In this document: piece by piece, positions 6,111 through 53,660 of the stretch
Position numbering within the stretch: the stretch's first letter is position 1
Layout of the letters: each line of letters opens with the position of its first letter
Source of the DNA: a phage
Strand: one strand, 5' to 3'
DNA length: 64,000 nt
NCBI GenBank assembly: GCA_025611195.1
Contig: GCA_025611195.1_4718.1
The notes under the pieces: generated by a model
The model's database searches: none
Told to the model about the DNA's origin: nothing
What the model saw: only the letters and a program-made list of their open reading frames with translations
Program-made: the position numbers and the translations under genes

Positions 6111-7553
6111 TTACTTTTTCGATGACGTCTTCTCAAGAATCTTGAAAAAGGTCATACCTATACCGACAACGGCCGCAGTTATACTCGCAGCGGCTTTCCA
6201 AACATCGACGTTACGTTGACGTCGCGCTTCTTCCGCTTCACGTTGTCTTTTTGCCTCTTCATCACGTCGACGTATCTCAGCAGCAAACTCGTCGTGCTTA
6301 CGTTTGGCTTCTTCGTCTCGACGACGAAGTTCAGCGACGAATTCTTCATGTTTGCGTTTGGCCTCGTCATCACGACGTTTTAAATCAGCTTGATAATCTT
6401 CGTGTATTTGTCTACGTAGATCATCTTGACGTTTCATTTCGGCTTGGTGTTGTTCCATCCTACGTTTTGATTCGTCTCTAAGCTGATCGAGTTCGGCTTT
6501 GTGTTGTTCATCGCGCAGCTTTGCGTCGGCGCGATGCGCTTCGTGCATCTGTGCGATAACCGCCTTGTGTTCATCCGCCATACGCCGCATTTCAGCCATC
6601 ACCCCTTTAAGGGTTTCTTCTGATGACTTACGTTCATAGCTACGCTGGTCGAAATCATTTTTGTAGGCTTCTTTTTGGATGGGGTCGCGCCAATGCAATG
6701 CCGATTCACGTGTCGGAAAAACATTATACTTCCACATCTCTTTTTCCAAATCTTCGACCGGTACGAAGACGGAGTCGTTATTCCCGAAGGTAACCAACAT
6801 ACCTGGCGCGCCTGCTCCATTCGTTGGTTTTATTTCGAACGCTTTCCCCAGCACGTTAACCCATAGGCTATACGGATTATGAAAGTCGGGCGGCGTCCAA
6901 TGGATAGTGAGTTGCGTTCCGAGAATCCGGAAACCCTCTGTCTTTCCTGTCAAGCTCCGCGCACATGTTGCGATGTAGGGGTGATCAATCCCTTTCGTAA
7001 CATGGTCTGCGCTTTTGTATTCTCCTTTAACTTTTACGATTGCCACGTTGATTTGCGCGACATAAATAGGTTGATTAAAGTTCAACGTGTTGAGGTCAAT
7101 TTGACATATCTCATCCAGCGTATCGTACCAGTCTTGCTGGTCTAATAGACGCGGTATTTTCTCTGTGTTAACGGTGCGATGGATATGCGGTTTCCTTATC
7201 GCATAACCGGTGCCGTTTTTAACGCGGAGTATATCCCGACGTCTACCCGCGTAGACGAAGTTTCTGAATGCACCATTCGCATTAGATATGTCATGGCTGT
7301 CAACTATTACAGGACTACGAAATTTTGAACGTCGTACGATCCTGAATGTATTGCCGTCCTCAACTCTACCAGGAATGTACTGGAACATATTGTCGGAGGT
7401 GATAACCAACACGGTATGGCCGGATTCATTAATACATGCCCACCCTAATTCCAGGTCATACAACGGTTCAGCATAACCGTCAATGCGATATGCGTGCGTA
7501 CCATCCCACGGTTCGAACGCGGTATCACATATTGGCATGGAGGGCATCGTCAA
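6111..7553 (-). CDS. hypothetical protein (480 aa) with C-terminal charged coiled-coil repeats and C-terminal transmembrane anchor
   Basis: repeats RRRDEEAKRKHEEFVAEL / RRRDEEAKRKHDEFAAEI then hydrophobic WKAAASITAAVVGIGMTFFKIL at C-terminus; preceded by promoter-like motif 7695-7716. Confidence 0.7.
   Translation of the reverse strand: MTMPSMPICDTAFEPWDGTHAYRIDGYAEPLYDLELGWACINESGHTVLVITSDNMFQYIPGRVEDGNTFRIVRRSKFRSPVIVDSHDISNANGAFRNFVYAGRRRDILRVKNGTGYAIRKPHIHRTVNTEKIPRLLDQQDWYDTLDEICQIDLNTLNFNQPIYVAQINVAIVKVKGEYKSADHVTKGIDHPYIATCARSLTGKTEGFRILGTQLTIHWTPPDFHNPYSLWVNVLGKAFEIKPTNGAGAPGMLVTFGNNDSVFVPVEDLEKEMWKYNVFPTRESALHWRDPIQKEAYKNDFDQRSYERKSSEETLKGVMAEMRRMADEHKAVIAQMHEAHRADAKLRDEQHKAELDQLRDESKRRMEQHQAEMKRQDDLRRQIHEDYQADLKRRDDEAKRKHEEFVAELRRRDEEAKRKHDEFAAEIRRRDEEAKRQREAEEARRQRNVDVWKAAASITAAVVGIGMTFFKILEKTSSKK
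6205..6400 (-). repeat. in-frame tandem direct repeats (~54 bp unit, about 3 copies) encoding the charged coiled-coil segment of the 480-aa protein
   Basis: repeated DNA blocks ...cgtcgacgtatctcagcagcaaactcgtcgtgcttacgtttggc / ...cgtctcgacgacgaagttcagcgacgaattcttcatgtttgcgtttggc. Confidence 0.6.
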
Positions 7554-7694
7554 CCTCCATCAGATTGAAAACTATCACGCATAATGCATTTCCCTTTTCT
7601 TGTTCTTATCAAGCCGACAGCCGACGGTTTCAGCATCGTCCCTAGCGCGAGAACGACCTTACGTGTTGTCTATGCCTTATTAATCGCAGGCGTC

Positions 7695-7716
7695 TGTCAC
7701 CTAGGTAATGTAAGCG
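7695..7716 (-). promoter_or_regulatory. early-promoter-like motif (minus-strand reading CGCTTACATTACCTAGGTGACA), degenerate copy of the motif at 15865-15888 and 53555-53578
   Basis: shared core TAC/TATTACCTAGGTGA upstream of a minus-strand gene start and just downstream of a hairpin. Confidence 0.4.
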
Positions 7717-7755
7717 TCAAATTTTTTCTATTTATAACGATAAACGGCATAGAAA

Positions 7756-10916: not shown

Positions 10917-12527
10917 ATGGACCCAAAACAGATAGCCATTAAGATTATTACGTTACTGTTTCGTAACGCACAATTGAACCATCCCGATCCCAGTACGATC
11001 GACCATGTTAAATCCGTCTTAGATAAAGTCGAACCCCCGAAAAACCATCTCGCTACGGACATAGATAGAGAGGTTTTCAACAACCTGATGAATACCATTC
11101 ATTGGATGCTGGAACAACCGTTATCGGAACCTTTCGACAAACAACAGTTGTTACAAAGGATACGTTTAGATTGCCTTGAGCAAAGCAATCTTTACGAGAT
11201 TCTTGCCGACGGACTGTACGATATCGAAGACGATGCTCATATCAGTAAGGTCTGTTCGCTTTATTACAACGAATTGCGTAACCTGGTTACCCGCCGTCGT
11301 GTTTTCGAAACCTTTAGAAACACGTACATGGATATCAGTAACGGGCGACTTGGGGATAAAGAATTTTTCGATGCGATGGCGAATTTGAAATTATCGCTTG
11401 ATAGTATCGAAATGGATACCGAAAATCCCGAAGAGATGTCGTGTATGGTTGATGGCTTTATTGCCGACAGCGAAGACGATATCGAGAAAGTCGAACGCAT
11501 GTTCGTCAAAGCGATGGAACGTAACAGTCCTGAAGGTGGGTTTGTAACCGGCTGGCAAGGTTTTAATAAAATGTTGGGGTCGGTCGGCGTTTTACGTCGC
11601 GGTACCTTAGGACTGATTGGTGCAATGCAGCACCGAAATAAATCGGGTGTGTTGTTAAAACTGTTCACGCATCTGGCATTGTACAATAAACCTCATTTCT
11701 TTTTTCCGGAGCGAGCAAAGAAAGCATTACTGATTCATTTGTCAACAGAAAACGAAGTAGAAGAAAACACGCTTCAGATATACAAGAACATGCGAGAACA
11801 GGAAACAGGCGAATATGTCGATATTCGTAAGATTGACCCTCGCGAGGCATCACGTTATGTGTTGAAGGTGTTCAACGATGCGGGTTTCTCTGTTTGTATG
11901 CGCCGTGTTGACGGGATGAGTTACAAACAACTCGCTAATCTCATCGACCATTTCGAACGCATGGGTTATGAGGTCATGGCGTTGTTCATTGACTATCTGA
12001 AAATGTTCTCATCGGAAGGGCTGGATAGAAATGGACCGACCGGCGCATGGCTACAAGAACTCTTCAACAAAGTCCGTAACCTCTGCAGTGTTAAACGTAT
12101 TTTAGGTATGACCGTACACCAGCTGTCATCCGACGCGAAGATGCGCGCACGTGATGGTAACGACGAAGAGTTTGTTGACCAGGTCGCAGGCTTAAGTTAC
12201 TGGGATGGTTGTAAAGGGATTGACCGTGAGATCGATCTTGAAGTGATTGTTGATATCGTTAAGGAACCGGGTAAACGTCAAAGCTGGCAAGTCTTTGCAT
12301 TAGGGAAGGACCGTCAACCGGATAACGGTTCAACAAAACCTGAGGATAAACATTTCACAATGCCATTCCAAACCATCGGGATGCTTCCTGATGATTACGG
12401 TAAGAAAGCAGTATACTGCCGTAAGGTTGGTGGACAACCGGTCTCCGAGGGAGGTAAAGGTCCGTGGAACAAATTCGATGAAAATGCAGCACCGAGTAAT
12501 GAATTACAATTTGATTTAGAATTTTAA
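10917..12527 (+). CDS. hypothetical protein (~536 aa); start moved to internal ATG with AAAGGA Shine-Dalgarno
   Basis: track ORF 10833-12527 overlaps divergent gene start; ATG at 10917 has SD at 10903-10910. Confidence 0.65.
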   Translation: MDPKQIAIKIITLLFRNAQLNHPDPSTIDHVKSVLDKVEPPKNHLATDIDREVFNNLMNTIHWMLEQPLSEPFDKQQLLQRIRLDCLEQSNLYEILADGLYDIEDDAHISKVCSLYYNELRNLVTRRRVFETFRNTYMDISNGRLGDKEFFDAMANLKLSLDSIEMDTENPEEMSCMVDGFIADSEDDIEKVERMFVKAMERNSPEGGFVTGWQGFNKMLGSVGVLRRGTLGLIGAMQHRNKSGVLLKLFTHLALYNKPHFFFPERAKKALLIHLSTENEVEENTLQIYKNMREQETGEYVDIRKIDPREASRYVLKVFNDAGFSVCMRRVDGMSYKQLANLIDHFERMGYEVMALFIDYLKMFSSEGLDRNGPTGAWLQELFNKVRNLCSVKRILGMTVHQLSSDAKMRARDGNDEEFVDQVAGLSYWDGCKGIDREIDLEVIVDIVKEPGKRQSWQVFALGKDRQPDNGSTKPEDKHFTMPFQTIGMLPDDYGKKAVYCRKVGGQPVSEGGKGPWNKFDENAAPSNELQFDLEF

Positions 12528-12553
12528 ACGCAAAAAAAAAAGATTGTACGGTT

Positions 12554-12585
12554 CCCTCCTCCAACCCGTAAGGGAAGGAGGAGGG
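12554..12585. terminator. palindromic hairpin element CCCTCCTCC-AACCC-GTAA-GGGAA-GGAGGAGGG between convergent genes, A10 run on plus side
   Basis: perfect 9-bp stem plus inner CCC/GGG; conserved family. Confidence 0.6.
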
Positions 12586-12600
12586 TTATGACCGCGGTGG

Positions 12601-12927
12601 TTAACTTATCGTCATAAATTCGCTTGGTGAGAATTTCCAACCATTCTCATTGAGAAGTGTGTTGAGTTTCGCTGCGACGATAAGCCATGCATGCATAGCC
12701 GTTATGTCGTATTGGCGATTCACTCGACGTTGGTTTTCGATATTGATTTGCTCCTGTTCAGTGATGTTTGGATAGAGTGAGATAGCGCTGGGCTTACCCA
12801 ACGCGCTAGTCATCACCGCAGTACATTCACTGATAATGTTGTTTAAGTGGTAGTTGTATACCGTTCCACGCATGACGCGATGACGGCATTCGATAATAGC
12901 GTCGTAAATGATTTCTCGAGTAATCAT
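12601..12927 (-). CDS. hypothetical protein (108 aa)
   Basis: ORF in minus-strand gene string. Confidence 0.5.
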   Translation of the reverse strand: MITREIIYDAIIECRHRVMRGTVYNYHLNNIISECTAVMTSALGKPSAISLYPNITEQEQINIENQRRVNRQYDITAMHAWLIVAAKLNTLLNENGWKFSPSEFMTIS

Positions 12928-12933
12928 GATAAC

Positions 12934-13335
12934 TTAAAACATACGTTCGTTTTTAGCACGTGCGGCCATTACCAGATCGTAGATACCCGCGGTTCGTAAA
13001 CATTCGTCGTAGTAACGATGTGCGCCTTCCTCAGCCATCCATGATAACCCACGACTATCCGCAACAATAACCAATTTGTTATTGTTGAATGCACACACAA
13101 CACGGTAAGTCGCGTTGTTATTCGGATCGCGAGTGATCAGTTCATAGACACCGTTAACAGGTTTACTGAATTCGCCATTTAACGGGACGAGTTCGGTAGT
13201 ACCTTCAGCAAACGTTACGTTGATCGGAGAAGGATCTTTAGCGATAACAGTATATTCCACATTGTGTTCTTTACTGGTCATAATGCCGAAGTAAGAACTG
13301 ATAGGAGAACGCGGTACACTAAGAATATTAAACAT
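12934..13335 (-). CDS. hypothetical protein (~134 aa); start moved to ATG at 13335 with AAGAGGA SD
   Basis: longer track ORF would overlap upstream gene; internal start has strong SD. Confidence 0.5.
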   Translation of the reverse strand: MFNILSVPRSPISSYFGIMTSKEHNVEYTVIAKDPSPINVTFAEGTTELVPLNGEFSKPVNGVYELITRDPNNNATYRVVCAFNNNKLVIVADSRGLSWMAEEGAHRYYDECLRTAGIYDLVMAARAKNERMF

Positions 13336-13405
13336 GAAAGTTGTCCTCTTAATTGGATATAAATTGTTGAGTTTGTGATTGGGAAATGAAAACGTTGTTT
13401 CGGTT

Positions 13406-13978
13406 TTAGACGATGAGTGACCAGGTGGTAAGCACACCGCTTGCGAATTCGAGCTTAAGACGTTTACCGATAAGTTGTTGTTGAATCATCTTTTCAGTGA
13501 TACGTCGATCTTGCTGAACCGCTTTATCAAACGCTTCTTTCGCTTCGGCTTGGTAGAAGTTCGTTTCTTCGTTGTCGTCGATCTCTTCGAGAGCGTCATC
13601 GTCGATGTCAGCAAGTTTCACTCGACCGTTTTCATCAGGTTGTTCTGCAGGCTCATTGTCATAAGGCGTGTCTTTTGTTGGTGCGACACGATGATGCAAC
13701 TCGACCTGTGTTAACATGATCTCCATCTCACCATCGATAGGGATGATTTCATCGGCGCAGCCGTTTTCGGTCAGCTCTCGACTTTCCAGTAATGTCGTGG
13801 TGACAGAGAACACCTCTTCAACAGGAACCTCATCATCGTCGATAGTGTTAACCGTATTGCTGGTAACTTCGGCAACGACCATCAAATCGAATGCGTGAGG
13901 ATCACCTGGCATTTTGATTCCTGGAAGTTTGTTGAGGTACCAAGGATCGAGAATCATGATTTCTGGATTAAACATCAT
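13406..13978 (-). CDS. hypothetical acidic protein (190 aa)
   Basis: ORF; Asp/Glu-rich. Confidence 0.55.
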   Translation of the reverse strand: MMFNPEIMILDPWYLNKLPGIKMPGDPHAFDLMVVAEVTSNTVNTIDDDEVPVEEVFSVTTTLLESRELTENGCADEIIPIDGEMEIMLTQVELHHRVAPTKDTPYDNEPAEQPDENGRVKLADIDDDALEEIDDNEETNFYQAEAKEAFDKAVQQDRRITEKMIQQQLIGKRLKLEFASGVLTTWSLIV

Positions 13979-14049
13979 TTTACCTTTCTATGTTAGGTGG
14001 ATTGCGGATAGAAGAATCAATGCATAAACTAATTTAAGTTTGTTAAGGT

Positions 14050-14952
14050 TTACTTAGCCTTTGAGTTATGCGGACTAACATGCTGTTGTACTCGTTGGAT
14101 TGTATCGTAGTACGGGTTAGATTGGTTGAACATGTTGTTGTGTGGGGGATAGCCATATGGCGCATTTTGCCTTGTTGGTGAGAAACCTTGTTGAGAAGGA
14201 CGGTTTGAATTAACCGCGAGTACGTAGTAAACCAAATTTTGACGGTCGAATGTTCCTTCGTTTTTGAAAGTGTCGGCGTAGGCTTTTACCGCTGGAGTGA
14301 GCCTATCACCATCGGCTGTAATAATTGTACCGTCTGGGTAAACTTCCCGAACGACGCACCATGTTCCGATGAGAACATCTTTAGGTGCTGTATTACCATA
14401 TCCGGTTGTAACGGTAAGGTAAGTATCGAACCCTTCAGAACAACAAGGATGACGATAGATGGGTCCTGTCATTTCCGTTCTATCGGTATCGCTACATTGT
14501 TCTATTGAGAGCGATGATGTGTCGGTTTTGAAATTGTCAAATTCTTTCTTTAAGTCGATTACGGGTTCTTTCGTATAGTACTTCTTGATTGCTTTGACGT
14601 AAAGATCAGGAACGGTTGTCAGCAATCCGTTATACCTGATTCTCAGGTTTTCGAGTAATCCAAAGATGCTCGCGCATGCCTGTTCGCGAGGTTTTGTAAG
14701 ATAAGAGATCCCCTCAGGAACGCTGGGATCTTTGAGAAAGAAGATTGCGTTATTGTCGTTGTGCGATGCGTTGAAGAAAACGATTGATTCGATATATACG
14801 GAGCATAGGCTGTCATTGGCGTCGTCAGATAACACCCAGATGCACTCATCGGTCGTCTTGTTTAAAAGTTCTGTTTTGTCGACCAAACGTTGTTTCATTG
14901 CGAGGAAATGTGCCTGTTGTTCAGCAGTTAATTCACGATAAATAGTGGTCAT
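14050..14952 (-). CDS. hypothetical protein (~300 aa), paralog of 15038-15811
   Basis: start at ATG 14952 with AAGGAG SD; C-terminal block HPCCSEGFDTYLTVTTGYGNTAPKDVLIGTWCVVREVYPDGTIITADG matches HPECHTTYDRYLTITGGVAAPSPVDIGEWRMIREIYPDGRIVTFCG in the neighbour. Confidence 0.65.
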   Translation of the reverse strand: MTTIYRELTAEQQAHFLAMKQRLVDKTELLNKTTDECIWVLSDDANDSLCSVYIESIVFFNASHNDNNAIFFLKDPSVPEGISYLTKPREQACASIFGLLENLRIRYNGLLTTVPDLYVKAIKKYYTKEPVIDLKKEFDNFKTDTSSLSIEQCSDTDRTEMTGPIYRHPCCSEGFDTYLTVTTGYGNTAPKDVLIGTWCVVREVYPDGTIITADGDRLTPAVKAYADTFKNEGTFDRQNLVYYVLAVNSNRPSQQGFSPTRQNAPYGYPPHNNMFNQSNPYYDTIQRVQQHVSPHNSKAK

Positions 14953-15037
14953 GTTGGGCTCCTTGATTACGATAAGGATGATTGCGGTTTTGTGGGTTTG
15001 GTAGGGCCCTAAACAAAGGAACCCTACCAATATTAGG

Positions 15038-15811
15038 TTAATCAGGATCGGCGTAGAAATGGTGAGGATAGCCGGAGTACGATCCTGCGTTACCGGCTAT
15101 GGATTCTTTCTGGGAATCGACGACGAGCGCATAGAACTGTCGGGAATTTGTTAGCGTTGAGAAATAAGCGGAAAGGACTTTTTCATTCAATGCATCACAA
15201 GGTAGGCAGGTGCGACCGCAAAACGTCACGATACGGCCGTCAGGATAGATCTCACGAATCATTCTCCACTCACCGATATCCACTGGTGATGGCGCTGCTA
15301 CACCACCTGTTATCGTTAAGTAACGATCGTACGTGGTATGGCATTCAGGATGAATATAGATCGGCTTGTTCGTTTCGACAGGTTCCGAAGTATCTCGACG
15401 ACTAAGAAGCTCAACGACTTCAAGATAAATCGTTGGTAGATCGCGGAGAATACCGGTGCTACGACGTTTCTTTGTGATTCGCGGACGAATCTCGTTGAGA
15501 GCGTATTCGAGCTTACGTTCAGCTTCGTACGCATCGAGTTTTATCAAGCGACCCGGTTCATCGGAATGATCCTGAGTTACGTAAACGAAATACGTGTCGC
15601 CTTTTGCAGCGTGAAAGATTCGAGCGACCTTAAATGTTTCTACGGTACGATAACCAAGGCGCGATTGATTTTCCACAGGAGAAAATATCCAATGCCGTCC
15701 TTCGTCAGCCTCAACAATTTCGTTGAAACTATCTGTCTGTTCTGGGACCTGGTAGTCAGCCAGTAATGTGTCGAGAGCATCATCAGCCAGTTTGATGTAA
15801 ATATCTGTCAT
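15038..15811 (-). CDS. hypothetical protein (257 aa), paralog of 14050-14952
   Basis: shared C-terminal domain with adjacent gene; preceded by promoter-like motif. Confidence 0.65.
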   Translation of the reverse strand: MTDIYIKLADDALDTLLADYQVPEQTDSFNEIVEADEGRHWIFSPVENQSRLGYRTVETFKVARIFHAAKGDTYFVYVTQDHSDEPGRLIKLDAYEAERKLEYALNEIRPRITKKRRSTGILRDLPTIYLEVVELLSRRDTSEPVETNKPIYIHPECHTTYDRYLTITGGVAAPSPVDIGEWRMIREIYPDGRIVTFCGRTCLPCDALNEKVLSAYFSTLTNSRQFYALVVDSQKESIAGNAGSYSGYPHHFYADPD

Positions 15812-15864
15812 GTTTGTATCCTCGGTTATTAAGAGAAATTTACAGTGATAACAGTAAGCGTTGT

Positions 15865-15888
15865 TATCACCTAGGTAATATAGTCGCG
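15865..15888 (-). promoter_or_regulatory. conserved early-promoter-like motif (minus-strand reading CGCGACTATATTACCTAGGTGATA) followed by 5'-UTR inverted repeat AGTGATAACA...TGTTATCAC (15844-15870)
   Basis: near-identical to motif at 53555-53578; placed between a hairpin and the next gene start. Confidence 0.5.
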
Positions 15889-15924
15889 AAATAAACTGGA
15901 GTAATGCGCTTAAGACAGCATAAA

Positions 15925-15957
15925 CCCCTCTCCCAACCCGTCAGGGAAGGGAGAGGG
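15925..15957 (-). terminator. palindromic hairpin element CCCCTCTCCC-AACCC-GTCA-GGGAA-GGGAGAGGG
   Basis: inverted repeat immediately after stop of 15962-17329. Confidence 0.55.
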
Positions 15958-15961
15958 AATA

Positions 15962-17329
15962 TTAAACGGTTGGACGAACGGTATTGTCTTTTTCTGGTGC
16001 GATCCATAACGTGACCGTACCATGGCATGTCCACTGTGGTTCACGTACAGAAGAACCCGCCATCGTTACAGCGCAATCGGTACGCATGATGACCCCATAT
16101 GCTTCGCAGAGGTTGTTATCCTGCATCCACACAACTTTAGCGGGCATACCGGGATACAACAGATCCATGTTTGCGTATTCCCACACCAACTGCATTGTTC
16201 TACCGCGTAATCCAGCAGTATTGCTTATTTCACGCCATCGGTTATCGGTTACGCGTCCCATCCCTTTCGCCACCTTCACGTTATCGCTACGCTCTTCAGT
16301 TACGTACTCGCTAACGTTTACGGTACGACTGATTATGGTATCGCCCCCCTTTGATAATGTCATCCCCTGACTCATCTGACTTGCCGAAACAAAACGCCCA
16401 CCCGCATTACCTAACAACGAAGCCGCGTTATTGACGTCGCTTACCGACGCCCCTCTCGTACATGCAATTTCCACGTATTTGTCGCGATTGATCCAGGTCT
16501 TGTCCATACCCGGAAACATATCGGCAGGATAGTTGTAAAAGATAGCTGTACGTCGACCGTCAGAGAAACGGGTTTCGTCGTATAAGGGGTAGATATACAG
16601 ATACGGGGATTGATAATAACAACCGACATCTGCTGAATAAATACCAACCTGGTTCTGGATTTTATCTACGAGATCCATCGCATTGGTACCGTGTGGAAGA
16701 ATAAGCAACTTGAATGGGTTGTCGTTATTCGGTGCAACGATATCCACACCCTGCATTTTGAATCCGGTGTCAGCTTCAACCGCAGAAAGTATCTTGCTGA
16801 ATTCAAGGCGCAACACATCCAGCACTTTCGATCCAGTATAGTTCTCACCGGTTTCTGATTGCATGAAGCTTTCAAGAACAGGATCGAACAGTTGAAATTG
16901 AAGATCGACCATTTGTTCGTAGTCTTTCTTCGAAGAATCGGTTGCGGTACGTTCGTCGGTAGCAGACATACGACTGTCTACGGTTGTTAAACAGACCGCC
17001 CGGTAGACATAAGCCTGTGCGGCATCGTCTACGGTTTGGCGTTGTCCGCGCATCAGGCTGTACGCCTGCACGATGATGCGCATTTTAAGTTGTTGTTGGT
17101 ACGGTAGAATGTATTTTCCGTAACTGCCTGGTGGAAACTTTACAGAGATATAAAGTTCATCCCCTGCGTTACGTTCATAGTCTCGATACGTGTGGACTTG
17201 AGTCACTAAAGGAACAGACACCGTCATTGACGGCGTGATTAATTCCGCGGTGACTTTATACGCAACAGCAACAGCTTCCTGCGCAAACGTACCGATATAC
17301 CGTCCTAACGGCGTCTGTTTGTAATCCAT
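15962..17329 (-). CDS. hypothetical protein (455 aa), probable structural-module gene
   Basis: long ORF in tightly packed co-directional block 15962-21178. Confidence 0.7.
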   Translation of the reverse strand: MDYKQTPLGRYIGTFAQEAVAVAYKVTAELITPSMTVSVPLVTQVHTYRDYERNAGDELYISVKFPPGSYGKYILPYQQQLKMRIIVQAYSLMRGQRQTVDDAAQAYVYRAVCLTTVDSRMSATDERTATDSSKKDYEQMVDLQFQLFDPVLESFMQSETGENYTGSKVLDVLRLEFSKILSAVEADTGFKMQGVDIVAPNNDNPFKLLILPHGTNAMDLVDKIQNQVGIYSADVGCYYQSPYLYIYPLYDETRFSDGRRTAIFYNYPADMFPGMDKTWINRDKYVEIACTRGASVSDVNNAASLLGNAGGRFVSASQMSQGMTLSKGGDTIISRTVNVSEYVTEERSDNVKVAKGMGRVTDNRWREISNTAGLRGRTMQLVWEYANMDLLYPGMPAKVVWMQDNNLCEAYGVIMRTDCAVTMAGSSVREPQWTCHGTVTLWIAPEKDNTVRPTV

Positions 17330-17331
17330 GT

Positions 17332-17937
17332 TTAACGACCCCGTTGCTGTTGTTGAATGATGAATTCTTCGATCTTCGTGCCACGGAATTCGCTGTGACG
17401 AACTGCTTGCAGCTGCTCTTCAACGGTTGGACCAGCGTGGAGACCACCACGACGTGCACGGTTGATGCCGATGCGACGACGTTGACCGATTTCACGCAAA
17501 CGTGAAGATAATCCGCTCATTTCGGTTGGGTCTTTAATACGACCGCGTGCAACGTTCCACAGACCACCCATGAACTCTTCGAGAATACGACTGGCTTCGA
17601 GAGATGGTACGCGTGCGTTAGGATCGTTTTCGAGATTGTATTTAACGTATTCCGTGTGTTCCAGAAGAAGCATGAACATCTTCATGGCGTTCACGTCAGG
17701 ATTTGCAATACGCATAGGGACACCACGAGAATGCTTCTCAGCAGCCTGCGGTACGGTGAGCTGTGCGGGCACCTCTTCGTTCATGGTCATATCGTCGATT
17801 TCTGCAACCCCTGAAGAGTAGACACCGCTGACCTCATTGGTGTAATTGTCCACCATGAATTTACGGGGAATCCAGAATTCGAATTTACGTTCAAATAGAC
17901 GTTTGGTTGGAGTATCTTTAACGTGTTGTAGACTCAT
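17332..17937 (-). CDS. hypothetical protein (201 aa)
   Basis: ORF, overlaps neighbours by a few nt (coupling). Confidence 0.65.
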   Translation of the reverse strand: MSLQHVKDTPTKRLFERKFEFWIPRKFMVDNYTNEVSGVYSSGVAEIDDMTMNEEVPAQLTVPQAAEKHSRGVPMRIANPDVNAMKMFMLLLEHTEYVKYNLENDPNARVPSLEASRILEEFMGGLWNVARGRIKDPTEMSGLSSRLREIGQRRRIGINRARRGGLHAGPTVEEQLQAVRHSEFRGTKIEEFIIQQQQRGR

Positions 17938-19250
17938 GGCTCAATAGCTCCTGCTCGTAACAGCATAATAACGAACGGTGTGAAATAATAACGGTCCAGC
18001 GGAGAAAGCAACGGTAATGCGTCAACCATCTGTTTCAGTGCTGGGTGACTGATCGCTTTCTCATCGACCATATCACGCACCATACTCTCAATGATTGTCA
18101 TTGGGGCTTGGTTGCGATAGAAAGCCTCTGTGAAAACATAGTACGGATCGTCTGCTACCGATGGAAATAACGGAACGTCGTCATACTCCATCGATGTATG
18201 ATTGGTCACCAATGGGTTTGTCGGCGGTGTGTTTTCAGGCACAGCCAACTCTTTACCTACGTCTTCACCGAGCGACGTGGTCGCAGGCCACATACAGAAT
18301 CGCGCCCCGCTAAAACGAATCCCACCTGCAGCTGGGTACTGATAGAAACGCTTTGTTGACAACAGTGTGAATTTCACCGTCAACCGCGCCTCGTCTTCCC
18401 GACGTCCGTCCATGACCCATTCAAAGACAGAAATCGCGTTCGCTTCCTGGCTATCATCTACATTAAGACGTCCGAAGTTCCATGAGGGTTTTCCTTCAAG
18501 CGACGACCATAATTTCGTAAACGCGTTAACACACCAGGGGTCGTAGGTTGCAGCATCTTGACCAGGAACAAGCAGCGTGTTTAATTCACGGCTGTAAAAT
18601 TCGTGGTAATACGCGTGACAAAGTCCCAGCGCACGACGGAGATAATCATACTTACGATTGTATTTCTCCGTTGCCATTACGGGATGTTTTCCGTGCTTTA
18701 ACTGGTCTTGGTCGTACAGTGTATCCTCAACGATTTTCGCTTCCAGTTCGATAAGCTGTTTTTCGTCAAGAATACGCTGGAAGGAAATATCGCATTCGTA
18801 AGCCGGTGCTAAGCTGATGTTCTTCGGTGTGATTCTGGTGATAGTGTACACCGCGATACGATGATCGAGACCGGAGATTAACAGCATGTTACCTAAAAGA
18901 GGAACCGATACTGCCGGAAGTATACACGTACCCTCGGATTGAAAACGTGCGGTACCGTTGTCGTACGACGGCGTCAATGACGACATTAACTTGATAGGGT
19001 AATGTCTGATACGACGGTACTGTTGTTCGGCGATATCGCGGTTAGCTTGAAAACTGCTTTGTTCATCATCACGACCGAGAATCTGTTCGTAATAATCACA
19101 TTCTACGGAATAACCGGATGCGTAATTCACCAGTCCGATTTGACTATTGTATTGCTCATCCACCACCGCAGAACGATAAACATCGTCGCGAGCCTTCGCA
19201 GGCTGTTGGGGGTTGATGATGGGTTTCGCGGGCTTCTTAGCGAGCGCCAT
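17934..19250 (-). CDS. hypothetical protein (438 aa)
   Basis: long ORF, 4-nt overlap with downstream gene. Confidence 0.7.
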   Translation of the reverse strand: MALAKKPAKPIINPQQPAKARDDVYRSAVVDEQYNSQIGLVNYASGYSVECDYYEQILGRDDEQSSFQANRDIAEQQYRRIRHYPIKLMSSLTPSYDNGTARFQSEGTCILPAVSVPLLGNMLLISGLDHRIAVYTITRITPKNISLAPAYECDISFQRILDEKQLIELEAKIVEDTLYDQDQLKHGKHPVMATEKYNRKYDYLRRALGLCHAYYHEFYSRELNTLLVPGQDAATYDPWCVNAFTKLWSSLEGKPSWNFGRLNVDDSQEANAISVFEWVMDGRREDEARLTVKFTLLSTKRFYQYPAAGGIRFSGARFCMWPATTSLGEDVGKELAVPENTPPTNPLVTNHTSMEYDDVPLFPSVADDPYYVFTEAFYRNQAPMTIIESMVRDMVDEKAISHPALKQMVDALPLLSPLDRYYFTPFVIMLLRAGAIEP

Positions 19251-20829
19251 AGCGTTTCACTCCTACGATGGTACCGACAAGAATTCTCGGTACGAATAAA
19301 CTACGATGTTTGAACCATGAAGCGGTTGTTGGGATACGTTTGATGGCTTCGATAAGCCCGATTAGCGTATAACATCCCCGGCTGTTCTTCTTAGGCCAGT
19401 ACTTTTTATCTAAACCTAATACCGCAAACAGTTCATCCACCAGATTGGGATAACAACACAACGCTTCAAGCGTCTCAACCTGTAACTGACTTAAATCTAA
19501 CAGTATCGCCAGACGAACGTGGTAATCACTCCGTAAGTCTAACTGATCTTTCGCTTCAAGATCACCAACGTCGGTTAATGTCCACGCGTCTCTTGCGTAG
19601 CGGTATTTACCCTTCCAAACCTCAAGGAAAAAAGGAGATTGGTAATGGCATTTTGACCATTCTGGGTACTCGCGGAACCACCGAACAAGATCGGGATGGA
19701 ATTCACCTTCTTCGGCTAACGCGTCCAACGTCACCAACAGGTTAGGTTGTTCAGGATCGATAGCGAGTAGCGCGGTGAAAAGCGTGCTTGATGGAAGCTC
19801 GGTCTCCACGCTCGATGGTGGCAGCCATTCATCCAAATCGGGATACCGATACGCTTGAATCGATGCACCCTGTTCCGGCAAGAACGAATCACGAAGAATG
19901 TCCTGATACTGCACCACCATACCACCACGACGTGCACGGGATTTATCACGCACCGAGAGGCTCGGTTTGTAAAGGTACTCTTCGGGGAGTATCTGTTGGT
20001 GTACTTGAACCGGATACCGTGCTACGATGTGTGTTGGTGTGTCGTACGTGTAACGGTAAGAGAATGTAGCGTTGTACGAAGAACTGTTCTCATTCTTCTC
20101 TGGCTTCGGAGCGTCAGTGAAATCAAATTGACCAGAGATCTCTTCTTGCATTTCCCTGATAACCAATTTAACGCTCTTACCGTCACCTGCGACTGTCGTC
20201 ATGGTGGTTGCACGGTTGTCGAACCCGTCTCTAAGGTATTCGCTGAACTTATCCTTGTAACCCGCTATTGCTTCTCGGTGTGTGTGAATAACTTTTAACA
20301 GCATGAGAAACTGTGTAGGGATCGCATAGCTGTATTCAGCACTGAGAAACGCGGCAACATGCTGACTTGTGAGCAAACGTTTCATGTCGTACCACCAACG
20401 TTCGGCGGTGACCTGATCCTCGAACCGTTTGGTGATCTGCATGGTCGCAACCATCGTACTGTAAACAGGTACTAGCGATACGCCAAGGTTACGGTCTTCA
20501 AATACTGGAAGACTGTTTCGTTTGTAAACGGTATCGTACATGGACGCCTGTTCTTCAGGAACAACGTTAAGCTCGATTTGGATAAACCCGTCAGCAGGCC
20601 CTTTTACATCCTGATCAACAACTTGCGGCGGTTGCTCGTTCGCAGCGCTCATTTTAGCGTGAAGAGCTTCCCCTCGAAAAAGAATATTCTCGCGATTGTA
20701 ATCCCACCCGCAAAGCTCGCTGATCTGCCGTAATACCGCGATTGCAACTGGACGTGTTACCGTCGCGTATACGTCATTGATTTTTCGATCAAGTTTAGGC
20801 ATCGATGTCATCCTCGCTAATTTCACCAT
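19237..20829 (-). CDS. hypothetical protein (530 aa)
   Basis: long ORF. Confidence 0.7.
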   Translation of the reverse strand: MVKLARMTSMPKLDRKINDVYATVTRPVAIAVLRQISELCGWDYNRENILFRGEALHAKMSAANEQPPQVVDQDVKGPADGFIQIELNVVPEEQASMYDTVYKRNSLPVFEDRNLGVSLVPVYSTMVATMQITKRFEDQVTAERWWYDMKRLLTSQHVAAFLSAEYSYAIPTQFLMLLKVIHTHREAIAGYKDKFSEYLRDGFDNRATTMTTVAGDGKSVKLVIREMQEEISGQFDFTDAPKPEKNENSSSYNATFSYRYTYDTPTHIVARYPVQVHQQILPEEYLYKPSLSVRDKSRARRGGMVVQYQDILRDSFLPEQGASIQAYRYPDLDEWLPPSSVETELPSSTLFTALLAIDPEQPNLLVTLDALAEEGEFHPDLVRWFREYPEWSKCHYQSPFFLEVWKGKYRYARDAWTLTDVGDLEAKDQLDLRSDYHVRLAILLDLSQLQVETLEALCCYPNLVDELFAVLGLDKKYWPKKNSRGCYTLIGLIEAIKRIPTTASWFKHRSLFVPRILVGTIVGVKRYGAR

Positions 20830-53066: not shown

Positions 53067-53489
53067 TCAATTCAGTGATGCATACAACGCATAACGACTG
53101 TAGATTTCAACCGCTGGTCCATTATGCGTTAACAGACCATCTCGGTTGTAGTATTGGAAAAATGAATAACGTTTGTCGAAGTGATAAACGAAAGCAATGT
53201 CTTTGCCAAGACCTGTGATGTGCGGTCTGTTTTTATCTAGCAATGCTTTGACTTTTAACAGTGTTGCCGCACGCGCTTTAACATTAGGGATTAATCCATC
53301 ACAGTCGATATAAATCGTGTAACCTGTTTCTGATGCTGCGACAGTTGTATTGCGATTGACGCGAAAGATTTTTGTTTTGTATGTATCATCTTCAAGGATT
53401 GGGTTTTGTTTTTCGTATTTTCGTTTACGCAGAAATTCTACAACGGTAATATAGTTAGCGGTAATATGTCCGGTTATAGCTTGTAACAT
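53067..53489 (-). CDS. first gene of small array, P11 (140 aa)
   Basis: AAGAGGA SD; immediately downstream of promoter-like motif 53555-53578. Confidence 0.6.
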   Translation of the reverse strand: MLQAITGHITANYITVVEFLRKRKYEKQNPILEDDTYKTKIFRVNRNTTVAASETGYTIYIDCDGLIPNVKARAATLLKVKALLDKNRPHITGLGKDIAFVYHFDKRYSFFQYYNRDGLLTHNGPAVEIYSRYALYASLN

Positions 53490-53554
53490 CTTGACATCCT
53501 CTTATATTGGATTGATTACAGTTATCTTAAATAGGTGATAAGATATCTTGCTCT

Positions 53555-53578
53555 TATCACCTTAGTAATATAGTCGTG
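53555..53578 (-). promoter_or_regulatory. conserved early-promoter-like motif (minus-strand reading CACGACTATATTACTAAGGTGATA) followed by 5'-UTR inverted repeat AGGTGATAAG...CTTATCACCT (53533-53562)
   Basis: near-identical to 15865-15888; sits between hairpin 53618-53660 and start of P11. Confidence 0.5.
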
Positions 53579-53617
53579 AAATAGACTGCGTTAACAAGAA
53601 ATAAAAACAGCATAAAA

Positions 53618-53660
53618 CCTCCTCCCCCATCCTTCAAGAGGACGGTGGGAAGAGGGAGAG
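53618..53660 (-). terminator. degenerate copy of the pyrimidine/purine-arm hairpin element
   Basis: imperfect inverted repeat CCTCCTCCCCCATCC...GGACGGTGGGAAGAGGGAG after stop of 53664-54065. Confidence 0.35.

Follow-up and report, generated by a model that had tools for sequence, protein, structure and literature searches.

The stretch of phage DNA considered here (64,000 nucleotides of contig GCA_025611195.1_4718.1, assembly GCA_025611195.1; hereafter the window) carries on its minus strand two adjacent genes, which we call B and A in the order of transcription, lying between homologues of genes gp48 and gp46 of Escherichia phage vB_EcoM_Goslar. Goslar, a Goslarvirus of the Chimalliviridae, is a nucleus-forming jumbo phage, and positions 12000-20000 of the window match it at 94.6% identity. 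The match covers 78% of the query, and coverage is incomplete because the two-gene cassette is itself the gap. In a blastn comparison of positions 13001-17500, homology to Goslar stops at 14026 and restarts at 15807, 5 nt inside gene B. Goslar has neither A nor B but keeps a 26-amino acid (aa) remnant of a third paralog, of the type that we call C below. The coordinates of the features discussed are collected in Table 1.

An earlier note on this DNA, made from the letters alone, had read A and B as a duplicated module with a common C-terminal block on differing N-terminal halves. Both genes are present on the minus strand as it described, and the peptide blocks that it quoted are found verbatim. 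By BLASTP the C-terminal block is 37% identical over 119 aa (E=3e-17). The similarity is therefore genuine, far above chance, and not confined to a few residues. Aligned as families with hhalign, A and B match over their full length (99.5% probability, E=2e-22) and over the C-halves alone (99%, E=2.6e-18); the N-halves alone also align, over 120 columns at 21% identity (95.4%, E=1.8e-8). Both N-halves start with MT.IY, have a Trp near position 40, and close with LP.[IL]Y. Structure prediction with AlphaFold2 (AF2) places the secondary-structure elements in the same order in the two proteins. Because both halves align and share this order, A and B are tandem paralogs along their full length, with N-domains that have changed far more quickly. 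The N-terminal halves are indeed strongly diversified, as the note had it, but they are distantly homologous rather than unrelated; likewise, the paralogy and the conserved C-domain stand, but what was duplicated was the whole gene, with both domains homologous, not a shared module set on foreign heads.

The architecture predicted for both proteins is an alpha/beta N-domain of ~130 aa, a disordered linker, a beta-rich C-domain of ~90 aa, and a disordered tail rich in aromatic residues, Pro, His, and Asn. The models were built on shallow alignments of 26 sequences, and for B the pLDDT (predicted local distance difference test) is ~80-88 in the N-domain and 60-69 in the C-domain. Both proteins are acidic (isoelectric point (pI) 5.2-5.6; 5.2 for B) and soluble, and no transmembrane segments were found in either. 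For gene A we take the start to be the ATG at 14952, which lies behind AAGGAG and gives a protein of 300 aa, the length of its homologues; the program-made list of open reading frames (ORFs) places the start further out, at a TTG at 15030.

The C-domain had also been called Cys/His-containing. All members have the His of the HP motif, and nearly all share one Cys (C157 in B, C171 in A), but the Cys cluster is not common property. In B-type proteins H154, C198, C202, and C205 are invariant (C198-x3-C202-x2-C205 in 20 of 20), and C157 is nearly so; A lacks the cluster. A zinc site common to the whole domain was rejected, as the CGRTCxPC cluster is missing from A, C, and D, and a metal site is possible in B only, judging from the residues conserved there. 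A second peculiarity of B is a basic patch in its N-domain, RPRITKKRR, which is kept in all B-type proteins across N types that are 30-38% identical and is not present in A, C, or D. The most conserved stretch of the C-domain reads G.W..[IV]RE[IV]YPDG.[IV].T..G in both genes.

Table 1. Features of the cassette and of related elements in the window, listed along the minus strand, with distant copies last
Feature	Position	Strand	Remarks
gp48 homologue	15962-17329	-	455 aa; same-strand upstream neighbour
Terminator-like G+C-rich hairpin	15925..15958	-	CCCUCUCCC...GGGAGAGGG; closes gp48 unit; U-rich tract 15911-15924
Early-class promoter-like element	15865..15899	-	CCAGTTTATTTCGCGACTATATTACCTAGGTGATA; core TATATTAC at 15875-15882
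10-bp hairpin	15844..15871	-	GGUGAUAACA / UGUUAUCACU; RNA fold; directly 3' of promoter core
Gene B ribosome-binding site (RBS)	15819-15823	-	GAGGA
Gene B	15038..15811	-	ORF, 257 aa; acidic, soluble
Gene B N-domain	15401-15811	-	residues 1-137, then short linker
Basic patch of B	~15461-15487	-	residues 109-117
Gene B C-domain	15110-15364	-	residues 150-234; H154, C157, C198, C202, C205
Most conserved C-domain stretch	~15215-15274	-	residues 180-199 of B; residues 196-215 of A
Gene B tail	15041-15109	-	Tyr/His/Pro-rich, ...GYPHHFYADPD
B-A intergenic stem-loop	14998..15030	-	GGUAGGG...CCCUACC; -22.8 kcal/mol, z=-3.0; no U-tract
Gene A	14050..14952	-	ORF, 300 aa
Gene A N-domain	14575-14952	-	residues 1-126
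Gene A linker		-	residues 127-161; predicted disordered, acidic
Gene A C-domain	14203-14469	-	residues 162-250
Gene A tail	14053-14202	-	residues 251-300; basic, Q/N/P/Y-rich
Cassette indel versus Goslar	14027..15806	n/a	1780 bp here, 89 bp in Goslar
gp46 homologue	13406-13978	-	directly downstream of A
Second terminator-hairpin/early-promoter/5'-hairpin module	53490-53660	-	upstream of 140-aa ORFan 53067-53489
Third, weaker motif copy	near 7690-7725	-	TTTGACGCTTACATTACCTAGGTGA; upstream of 480-aa gene 6111-7553

The family to which A and B belong is narrow. Word-indexed searches returned 19 B-type clusters (47-95% identity) and 5 A-type clusters (56-95% identity), all on Goslar-like contigs of ~240 kb from Escherichia coli, Shigella, or Salmonella assemblies or from metagenomes. 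Where the homologues turned up is explained by the origin of the group, 59 of whose 60 known genomes come from bacterial isolate assemblies, Goslar being the sole plaque-isolated phage (bioRxiv 10.1101/2024.12.31.630880). When 1.84 billion representative proteins were searched exhaustively with HMMER, only four family clusters came up, namely B and A together with the 286-aa type D and the 291-aa type C; D and C were missed by the word-indexed profile search and recovered by HMMER alone. Tblastn found no copies of the family in 50,697 phage records that included Goslar, and none turned up in complete E. coli genomes, PLSDB plasmids, or GTDB representative genomes. The earlier note had proposed looking for the shared domain elsewhere in the genome as well, and a six-frame hmmsearch gave no further copy in the window. 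Searches of Pfam, PHROGs, PADLOC, NCBIfam, and PDB sequences with A, B, C, D, the N-domain-only form, and the C-domains alone gave nothing significant, and among these PADLOC, NCBIfam, Pfam, and PHROGs gave no significant match to known anti-phage-defence or counter-defence families. The PF12699 domain, which marks the phiKZ gp93-like family of inner-body or injected proteins, is absent from A, B, C, and D in Pfam scans at E<=1. Weak matches to EspF, TusA, and Hikeshi fell under the cut-off and were rejected. A fold search gave no match; the C-domain model resembles small Mop/OB-like barrels weakly and non-significantly. We find the family only in Goslar-like nucleus-forming jumbo phages; apart from an N-domain-only form, its members divide into four subfamilies, B, A, D, and C.

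The sole matches outside the family among the 1.84 billion proteins were two NHL-repeat proteins (E ~1e-4), each through 5-7 repeated matches to an 18-aa segment alone, IR.I.PDG.[IV].T..G, which resembles the NHL blade motif and occurs once per family protein. We rejected homology to NHL-repeat beta-propellers as motif-only: Pfam gave no NHL match at E<=10 and no propeller fold is predicted. Moreover, NHL beta-propellers need several tandem repeats, whereas A and B have a single motif each, a resemblance and not membership.

The locus varies among relatives. We compared 17 related loci or contigs, with about a dozen distinct genomes readable at the nucleotide level. The flanking genes gp48 and gp46 are 94-99% identical as proteins (dS ~0.2-0.3, dN/dS 0.03-0.04), and the slot between them holds from zero to three full-length paralogs, to which some loci add an N-domain-only member. 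B-A is the arrangement in the window, L002, L009/L010, L014, and L015, and B-D-C in L003/L004; the N-only member precedes B-A in L005-7 and L012 and B-D-C in L016; L011 has B-D-C(deltaN); and Goslar and L017 have the 26-aa remnant only. Fifteen loci have intact reading frames. Since copy number varies from zero to three in genomes that are otherwise ~95-99% identical, genes of the A/B family are dispensable, and since the copies are under purifying selection (see below) they are functional. Presence/absence and allelic polymorphism among near-identical genomes, at a fixed position and behind an early-class promoter, make this an accessory variable slot, resembling an anti-defence island in layout.

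Several smaller observations attach to the slot. The N-only member, the first gene of the cassettes that have it (L005 4569-4973, L012 2066-2470, L016 5554-5958), is a protein of 134 aa (MTDIYRN...LPSIWLKID) that stops exactly at the LP.[IL]Y motif and scores ~19 bits against the B N-domain profile in hmmsearch. The Goslar remnant, MTLLIRDPSEYENTRYNHNQFGNNF, keeps ~11 residues from the start and ~9 from the end of a C-type gene, the interior being deleted. Goslar gp047, annotated there as a 63-aa gene (NC_048170 49584-49772; L001 5031-5219), has its start 5' of the promoter. Because the annotated ORF begins upstream of the promoter and runs through it, the annotation is probably wrong, the real ORF behind the RBS being the 26-aa MTLLIRDPSEYENTRYNHNQFGNNF. 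An identical remnant occurs at 8170-8248 of L017, a second, independent genome (IMG/VR 3300011560, metagenome), which also has an extra 210-aa gene, X210. X210 is found after the gp48 stop codon and before the terminator (L007 1745-2377, L005 3816-4448, L011 5214-5846, and also L014, L015, and L017) and is present in neither the window nor Goslar. It is unrelated to the cassette family, and because it stands 5' of the terminator it is part of the transcription unit of gp48 and lies outside the cassette. Distant homologues of X210 are found in the jumbo phages Erwinia pEa_SNUABM_54, Shewanella SXP01, and Klebsiella Eowyn. Its identification as an ADP-ribosyltransferase, a guess from R-S-E-like motifs seen by eye (ILYRGV, SFTDTP, QREYV), was unsupported by Pfam and PDB sequence searches and was dropped.

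The two domains have evolved differently. The dN/dS values given here (ratios of nonsynonymous to synonymous substitution rates) are Nei-Gojobori estimates and approximate, and dS is saturated between N types. The B N-domain falls into types N1a, N1b, and N2, with N1 and N2 30-38% identical and dN/dS of 0.13-0.3 within types; the B C-domain falls into types alpha, beta, and gamma, with dN/dS of 0.03-0.18. C-alpha alleles reach a dS of 0.75 while remaining ~97% identical as proteins. In A, the N-domain has a dN/dS of 0.54-0.84 between allelic types at an unsaturated dS of 0.35-0.55, and the C-domain mostly 0.04-0.25, with 0.51 for one very close pair. The C-domains are under strong purifying selection. 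All four combinations of N1b or N2 with C-alpha or C-beta are seen, which requires recombination between the domains. Compared with L014, the window is 37-56% identical in nucleotides across the N-half of gene B; near codon 150 the figure rises abruptly to 94-97%, and it remains there throughout gene A. The N-domain is thus a set of deeply divergent allelic types shuffled against C types by recombination at the domain boundary. The diversified N-terminal specificity suggested in the earlier note would fit the elevated dN/dS and the allelic types. The C-domain type of B tracks its downstream partner perfectly, alpha with A and beta with D-C, which is most simply explained by physical linkage.

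The note had further supposed that both genes are expressed from an early-promoter-like motif at 15865-15888. The motif is real, recurring at 53555-53578 with 3 mismatches against a chance expectation of 0, and A and B stand behind this single early-class promoter-like element, no second copy of the motif lying within the cassette. The 150-nt spacer between gp48 and B contains, in order, a strong G+C hairpin followed by a U-rich stretch, the motif CCAGTTTATTTCGCGACTATATTACCTAGGTGATA, and the 10-bp hairpin; RNA folding of 15812-15961 gives -46.3 kcal/mol (z=-4.9), and the terminator-like hairpin is conserved in every related locus. TTTCGCGACTATATTACCTAGGTGA, at 15865-15892 on the minus strand, has the features of a chimallivirus early promoter, namely an AT-rich core, an upstream TTTC..-type element, a downstream ..GTG, an intergenic position, and an orientation towards the gene that follows, and the TATATTAC core with its TTTC.. 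and ..GTG flanks fits the consensus predicted for phiKZ, 201phi2-1, OBP, and N1M2 (PMC7058600, Table 2). Further, the 16-nt TATATTACCTAGGTGA recurs unchanged ~80 nt upstream of Goslar chmA, the gene of the nuclear shell protein chimallin, which has been described as expressed early (bioRxiv 10.64898/2026.04.21.720040). Every related locus has exactly one early-class promoter per cassette. The other copies of the motif are all intergenic and co-oriented with the following gene. A search of 13300-16300 for a sigma-70 promoter that might serve the cassette found none.

The 10-bp hairpin just 3' of the promoter core, whose pairing relatives keep despite substitutions, would be either a stem-loop of the 5' leader or a palindromic operator. 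The second module in the window, at 53.5 kb, has a hairpin of other stem sequence (GGTGATAAGA..TCTTATCACC) whose pairing is kept by compensatory changes. Between B and A, the intergenic stem is likewise kept by compensatory substitutions in L002, L014, L005, L003, and L016 (variants GGTAGGG/CCCTACC, GGTAGGAC/GTCCTACC, and GGTAGAG/CTCTAC). It was not called by the intrinsic-terminator scan; within the operon it probably stabilises the mRNA or serves in its processing, or else acts as a weak attenuator. A conserved hairpin with compensatory changes and no U-tract also lies between D and C, and a conserved leader, CATCCTTATCGTAATCAAGGAGCC, is common to paralogs A, C, and D.

Upstream on the same strand, the gp48 homologue corresponds to the protein assigned as the baseplate spike cap in a 2026 cryo-EM preprint; downstream are homologues of the Goslar hypothetical proteins gp46, gp45, and gp44. 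The terminator scan found no terminator 3' of A, so that gp46-gp44 are probably co-transcribed with the cassette. The gp46 homologue, which probably shares the operon, is strikingly acidic, with long D/E runs (DDDEVPVEEVF, DIDDDALEEIDDNEE); no family match to it was found, and it may be another early effector.

We are highly confident of the anatomy and evolution of the family as described above. It is less clear what the proteins do. A dispensable slot driven by an early promoter suggests host-interaction genes. Nucleus-forming jumbo phages are shielded from DNA-targeting immunity, and the cytoplasmic stage before the nucleus forms is their weak point. We tentatively propose a mechanism, which we would sooner doubt than rely on, in which the cassette would be transcribed early by the injected virion RNA polymerase and its soluble, acidic products would act in the host cytoplasm during the pre-nucleus phase. 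The constant C-domain and tail would serve as a docking or assembly module for an invariant partner, be it a phage or host hub or the sister paralogs, and the variable N-domain would be a specificity module for host factors that are polymorphic, most plausibly determinants of defence or host range that differ between strains. Having several paralogs and alleles would then broaden the range of targets covered. Taken as a whole, the account of a paralog family with a host-interaction role seems to us the best explanation, with a chance of being right not far below even.

Several considerations weigh against a role in host interaction. The searches of Pfam, PHROGs, PADLOC, NCBIfam, and PDB sequences gave no match, and the C-domain model is of low confidence (pLDDT ~60-69; 26 aligned sequences). 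Early timing is deduced from the match to a promoter motif. The dN/dS of the N-domains is below 1, and relaxed constraint together with old alleles could explain the pattern without an arms race. The perfect association between B C-type and partner could reflect linkage alone. Sorting of N types by host genus was unsupported in the few named sources, N2 occurring in E. coli, Shigella, and Salmonella assemblies. An extended form of the proposal, which we consider unlikely, is an undescribed two-module counter-defence or host-range system in which a C-domain of new fold, possibly a single NHL-like blade, would homo- or hetero-oligomerise the co-encoded paralogs or dock them to one invariant hub and display a recombining, combinatorial set of N-domains, which would bind strain-specific immune factors in the cytoplasm before the phage nucleus is built. 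The co-variation of C-alpha with A and of C-beta with D and C would then reflect co-evolving interfaces, not linkage.

Other functions can be imagined for the same anatomy. The proteins might be packaged in the virion and injected, like T4 internal proteins and Alt or the phiKZ inner-body paralogs, with the constant part directing packaging or targeting and the variable part acting as the injected effector. The slot does lie within a block of structural genes, directly after the spike-cap gene gp48; all paralogs have a conserved extreme N-terminus, MT.[IVL][YI], reminiscent of the T4 capsid-targeting sequence (AF2 places it in the first beta-strand of the fold); and tandem arrays of injected paralogs are known in Goslar (PF12699, gp53-58; bioRxiv 10.64898/2026.04.21.720040). 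However, a terminator and an early-class promoter separate gp48 from the cassette, neither PF12699 nor any other virion protein was matched, conservation lies in a folded 90-aa C-domain rather than in a short signal, and Goslar virions are complete without A and B, which together make packaging improbable. We give a similarly low probability to the idea that the proteins modulate lifestyle or superinfection, favouring a persistent carrier state or excluding related phages. The predominance of isolate assemblies among Goslar-like genomes (59 of 60) and the recovery of homologues from E. coli, Shigella, and Salmonella assemblies are in keeping with it, as is the fact that plaque-isolated Goslar is one of only two cassette-less genomes here. 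But that correlation depends on a single isolate, the other cassette-less genome, L017, comes from a metagenome and gives no indication of lifestyle, and the proteins have no membrane segment, a feature often present in superinfection-exclusion proteins.

The residues peculiar to B raise the question of whether the family regulates the early-to-middle programme by binding nucleic acid, B being a zinc-binding protein whose basic patch contacts phage or host DNA or RNA. The invariance of H154, C198, C202, and C205, the near-invariance of C157, the retention of RPRITKKRR in both N types, and the faint, non-significant resemblance of the C-domain model to Mop/OB-like barrels speak for this. Yet the Cys cluster and basic patch are missing in A, C, and D, the proteins have a low overall pI (5.2-5.6), the searches returned no DNA- or RNA-binding family, and a core regulator would be neither dispensable nor hypervariable; we regard such a role as slightly less probable again than packaging or persistence. 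Least probable by far is that the genes are functionless or selfish filler, decaying duplicates. The cassette is dispensable, is lost or truncated in Goslar, L017 (remnant), and L011 (C(deltaN)), and has no known homologues, as such a reading would have it. But 15 loci retain intact reading frames, the dN/dS of the C-domains is 0.03-0.19 at substantial dS, and RBS sequences and intergenic hairpins are conserved; the purifying selection largely refutes absence of function.

The host-interaction reading has analogies in other viruses, none of them exact. The internal protein loci of T4 are among the hyperplastic accessory regions of T-even phages, and their genes probably oppose host defences that differ between strains; their products are packaged and share only a capsid-targeting signal of ~10 aa, being otherwise unrelated. 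The cassette is like them in being a dispensable slot between conserved genes, in content that varies among close relatives, and in a short conserved N-terminus. It is unlike them in that A and B belong to one family with a folded, conserved C-domain and both domains homologous, and stand behind an early-class promoter. The ankyrin/PRANC (F-box-like) host-range proteins of poxviruses and the multigene families of African swine fever virus are non-essential and linked to host range, and they resemble the cassette in being tandem paralogs of variable copy number with a variable N-terminal part and a constant C-terminal domain, which in those viruses bind targets and act as adaptor, respectively; there is, however, no kinship of sequence or fold, and the host here is a bacterium without a ubiquitin system. 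Closer at hand, the PF12699 inner-body array of phiKZ and Goslar (Goslar gp53-gp58), which is conserved across chimalliviruses and abundant in virions, is likewise a set of lineage-specific tandem paralogs in the same structural-gene region. The cassette differs from it in having no PF12699 match and another promoter context, and in that A and B are missing from Goslar.

In general, the cassette is a cleanly bounded, dispensable, and polymorphic early-promoter locus in phages of E. coli, Shigella, and Salmonella, within a group mostly met persisting inside clinical and environmental isolates. To our knowledge, few early accessory proteins of nucleus-forming jumbo phages have known roles. Goslar, naturally cassette-less, lends itself to knock-in work on host range, counter-defence, and persistence, and the sharp boundary between constant and variable domains supplies natural chimeras for mapping specificity. 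Even should a role in host interaction not hold, the locus would be a clear case of domain-level recombination and, in Goslar gp047, of a remnant gene that has probably been mis-annotated.

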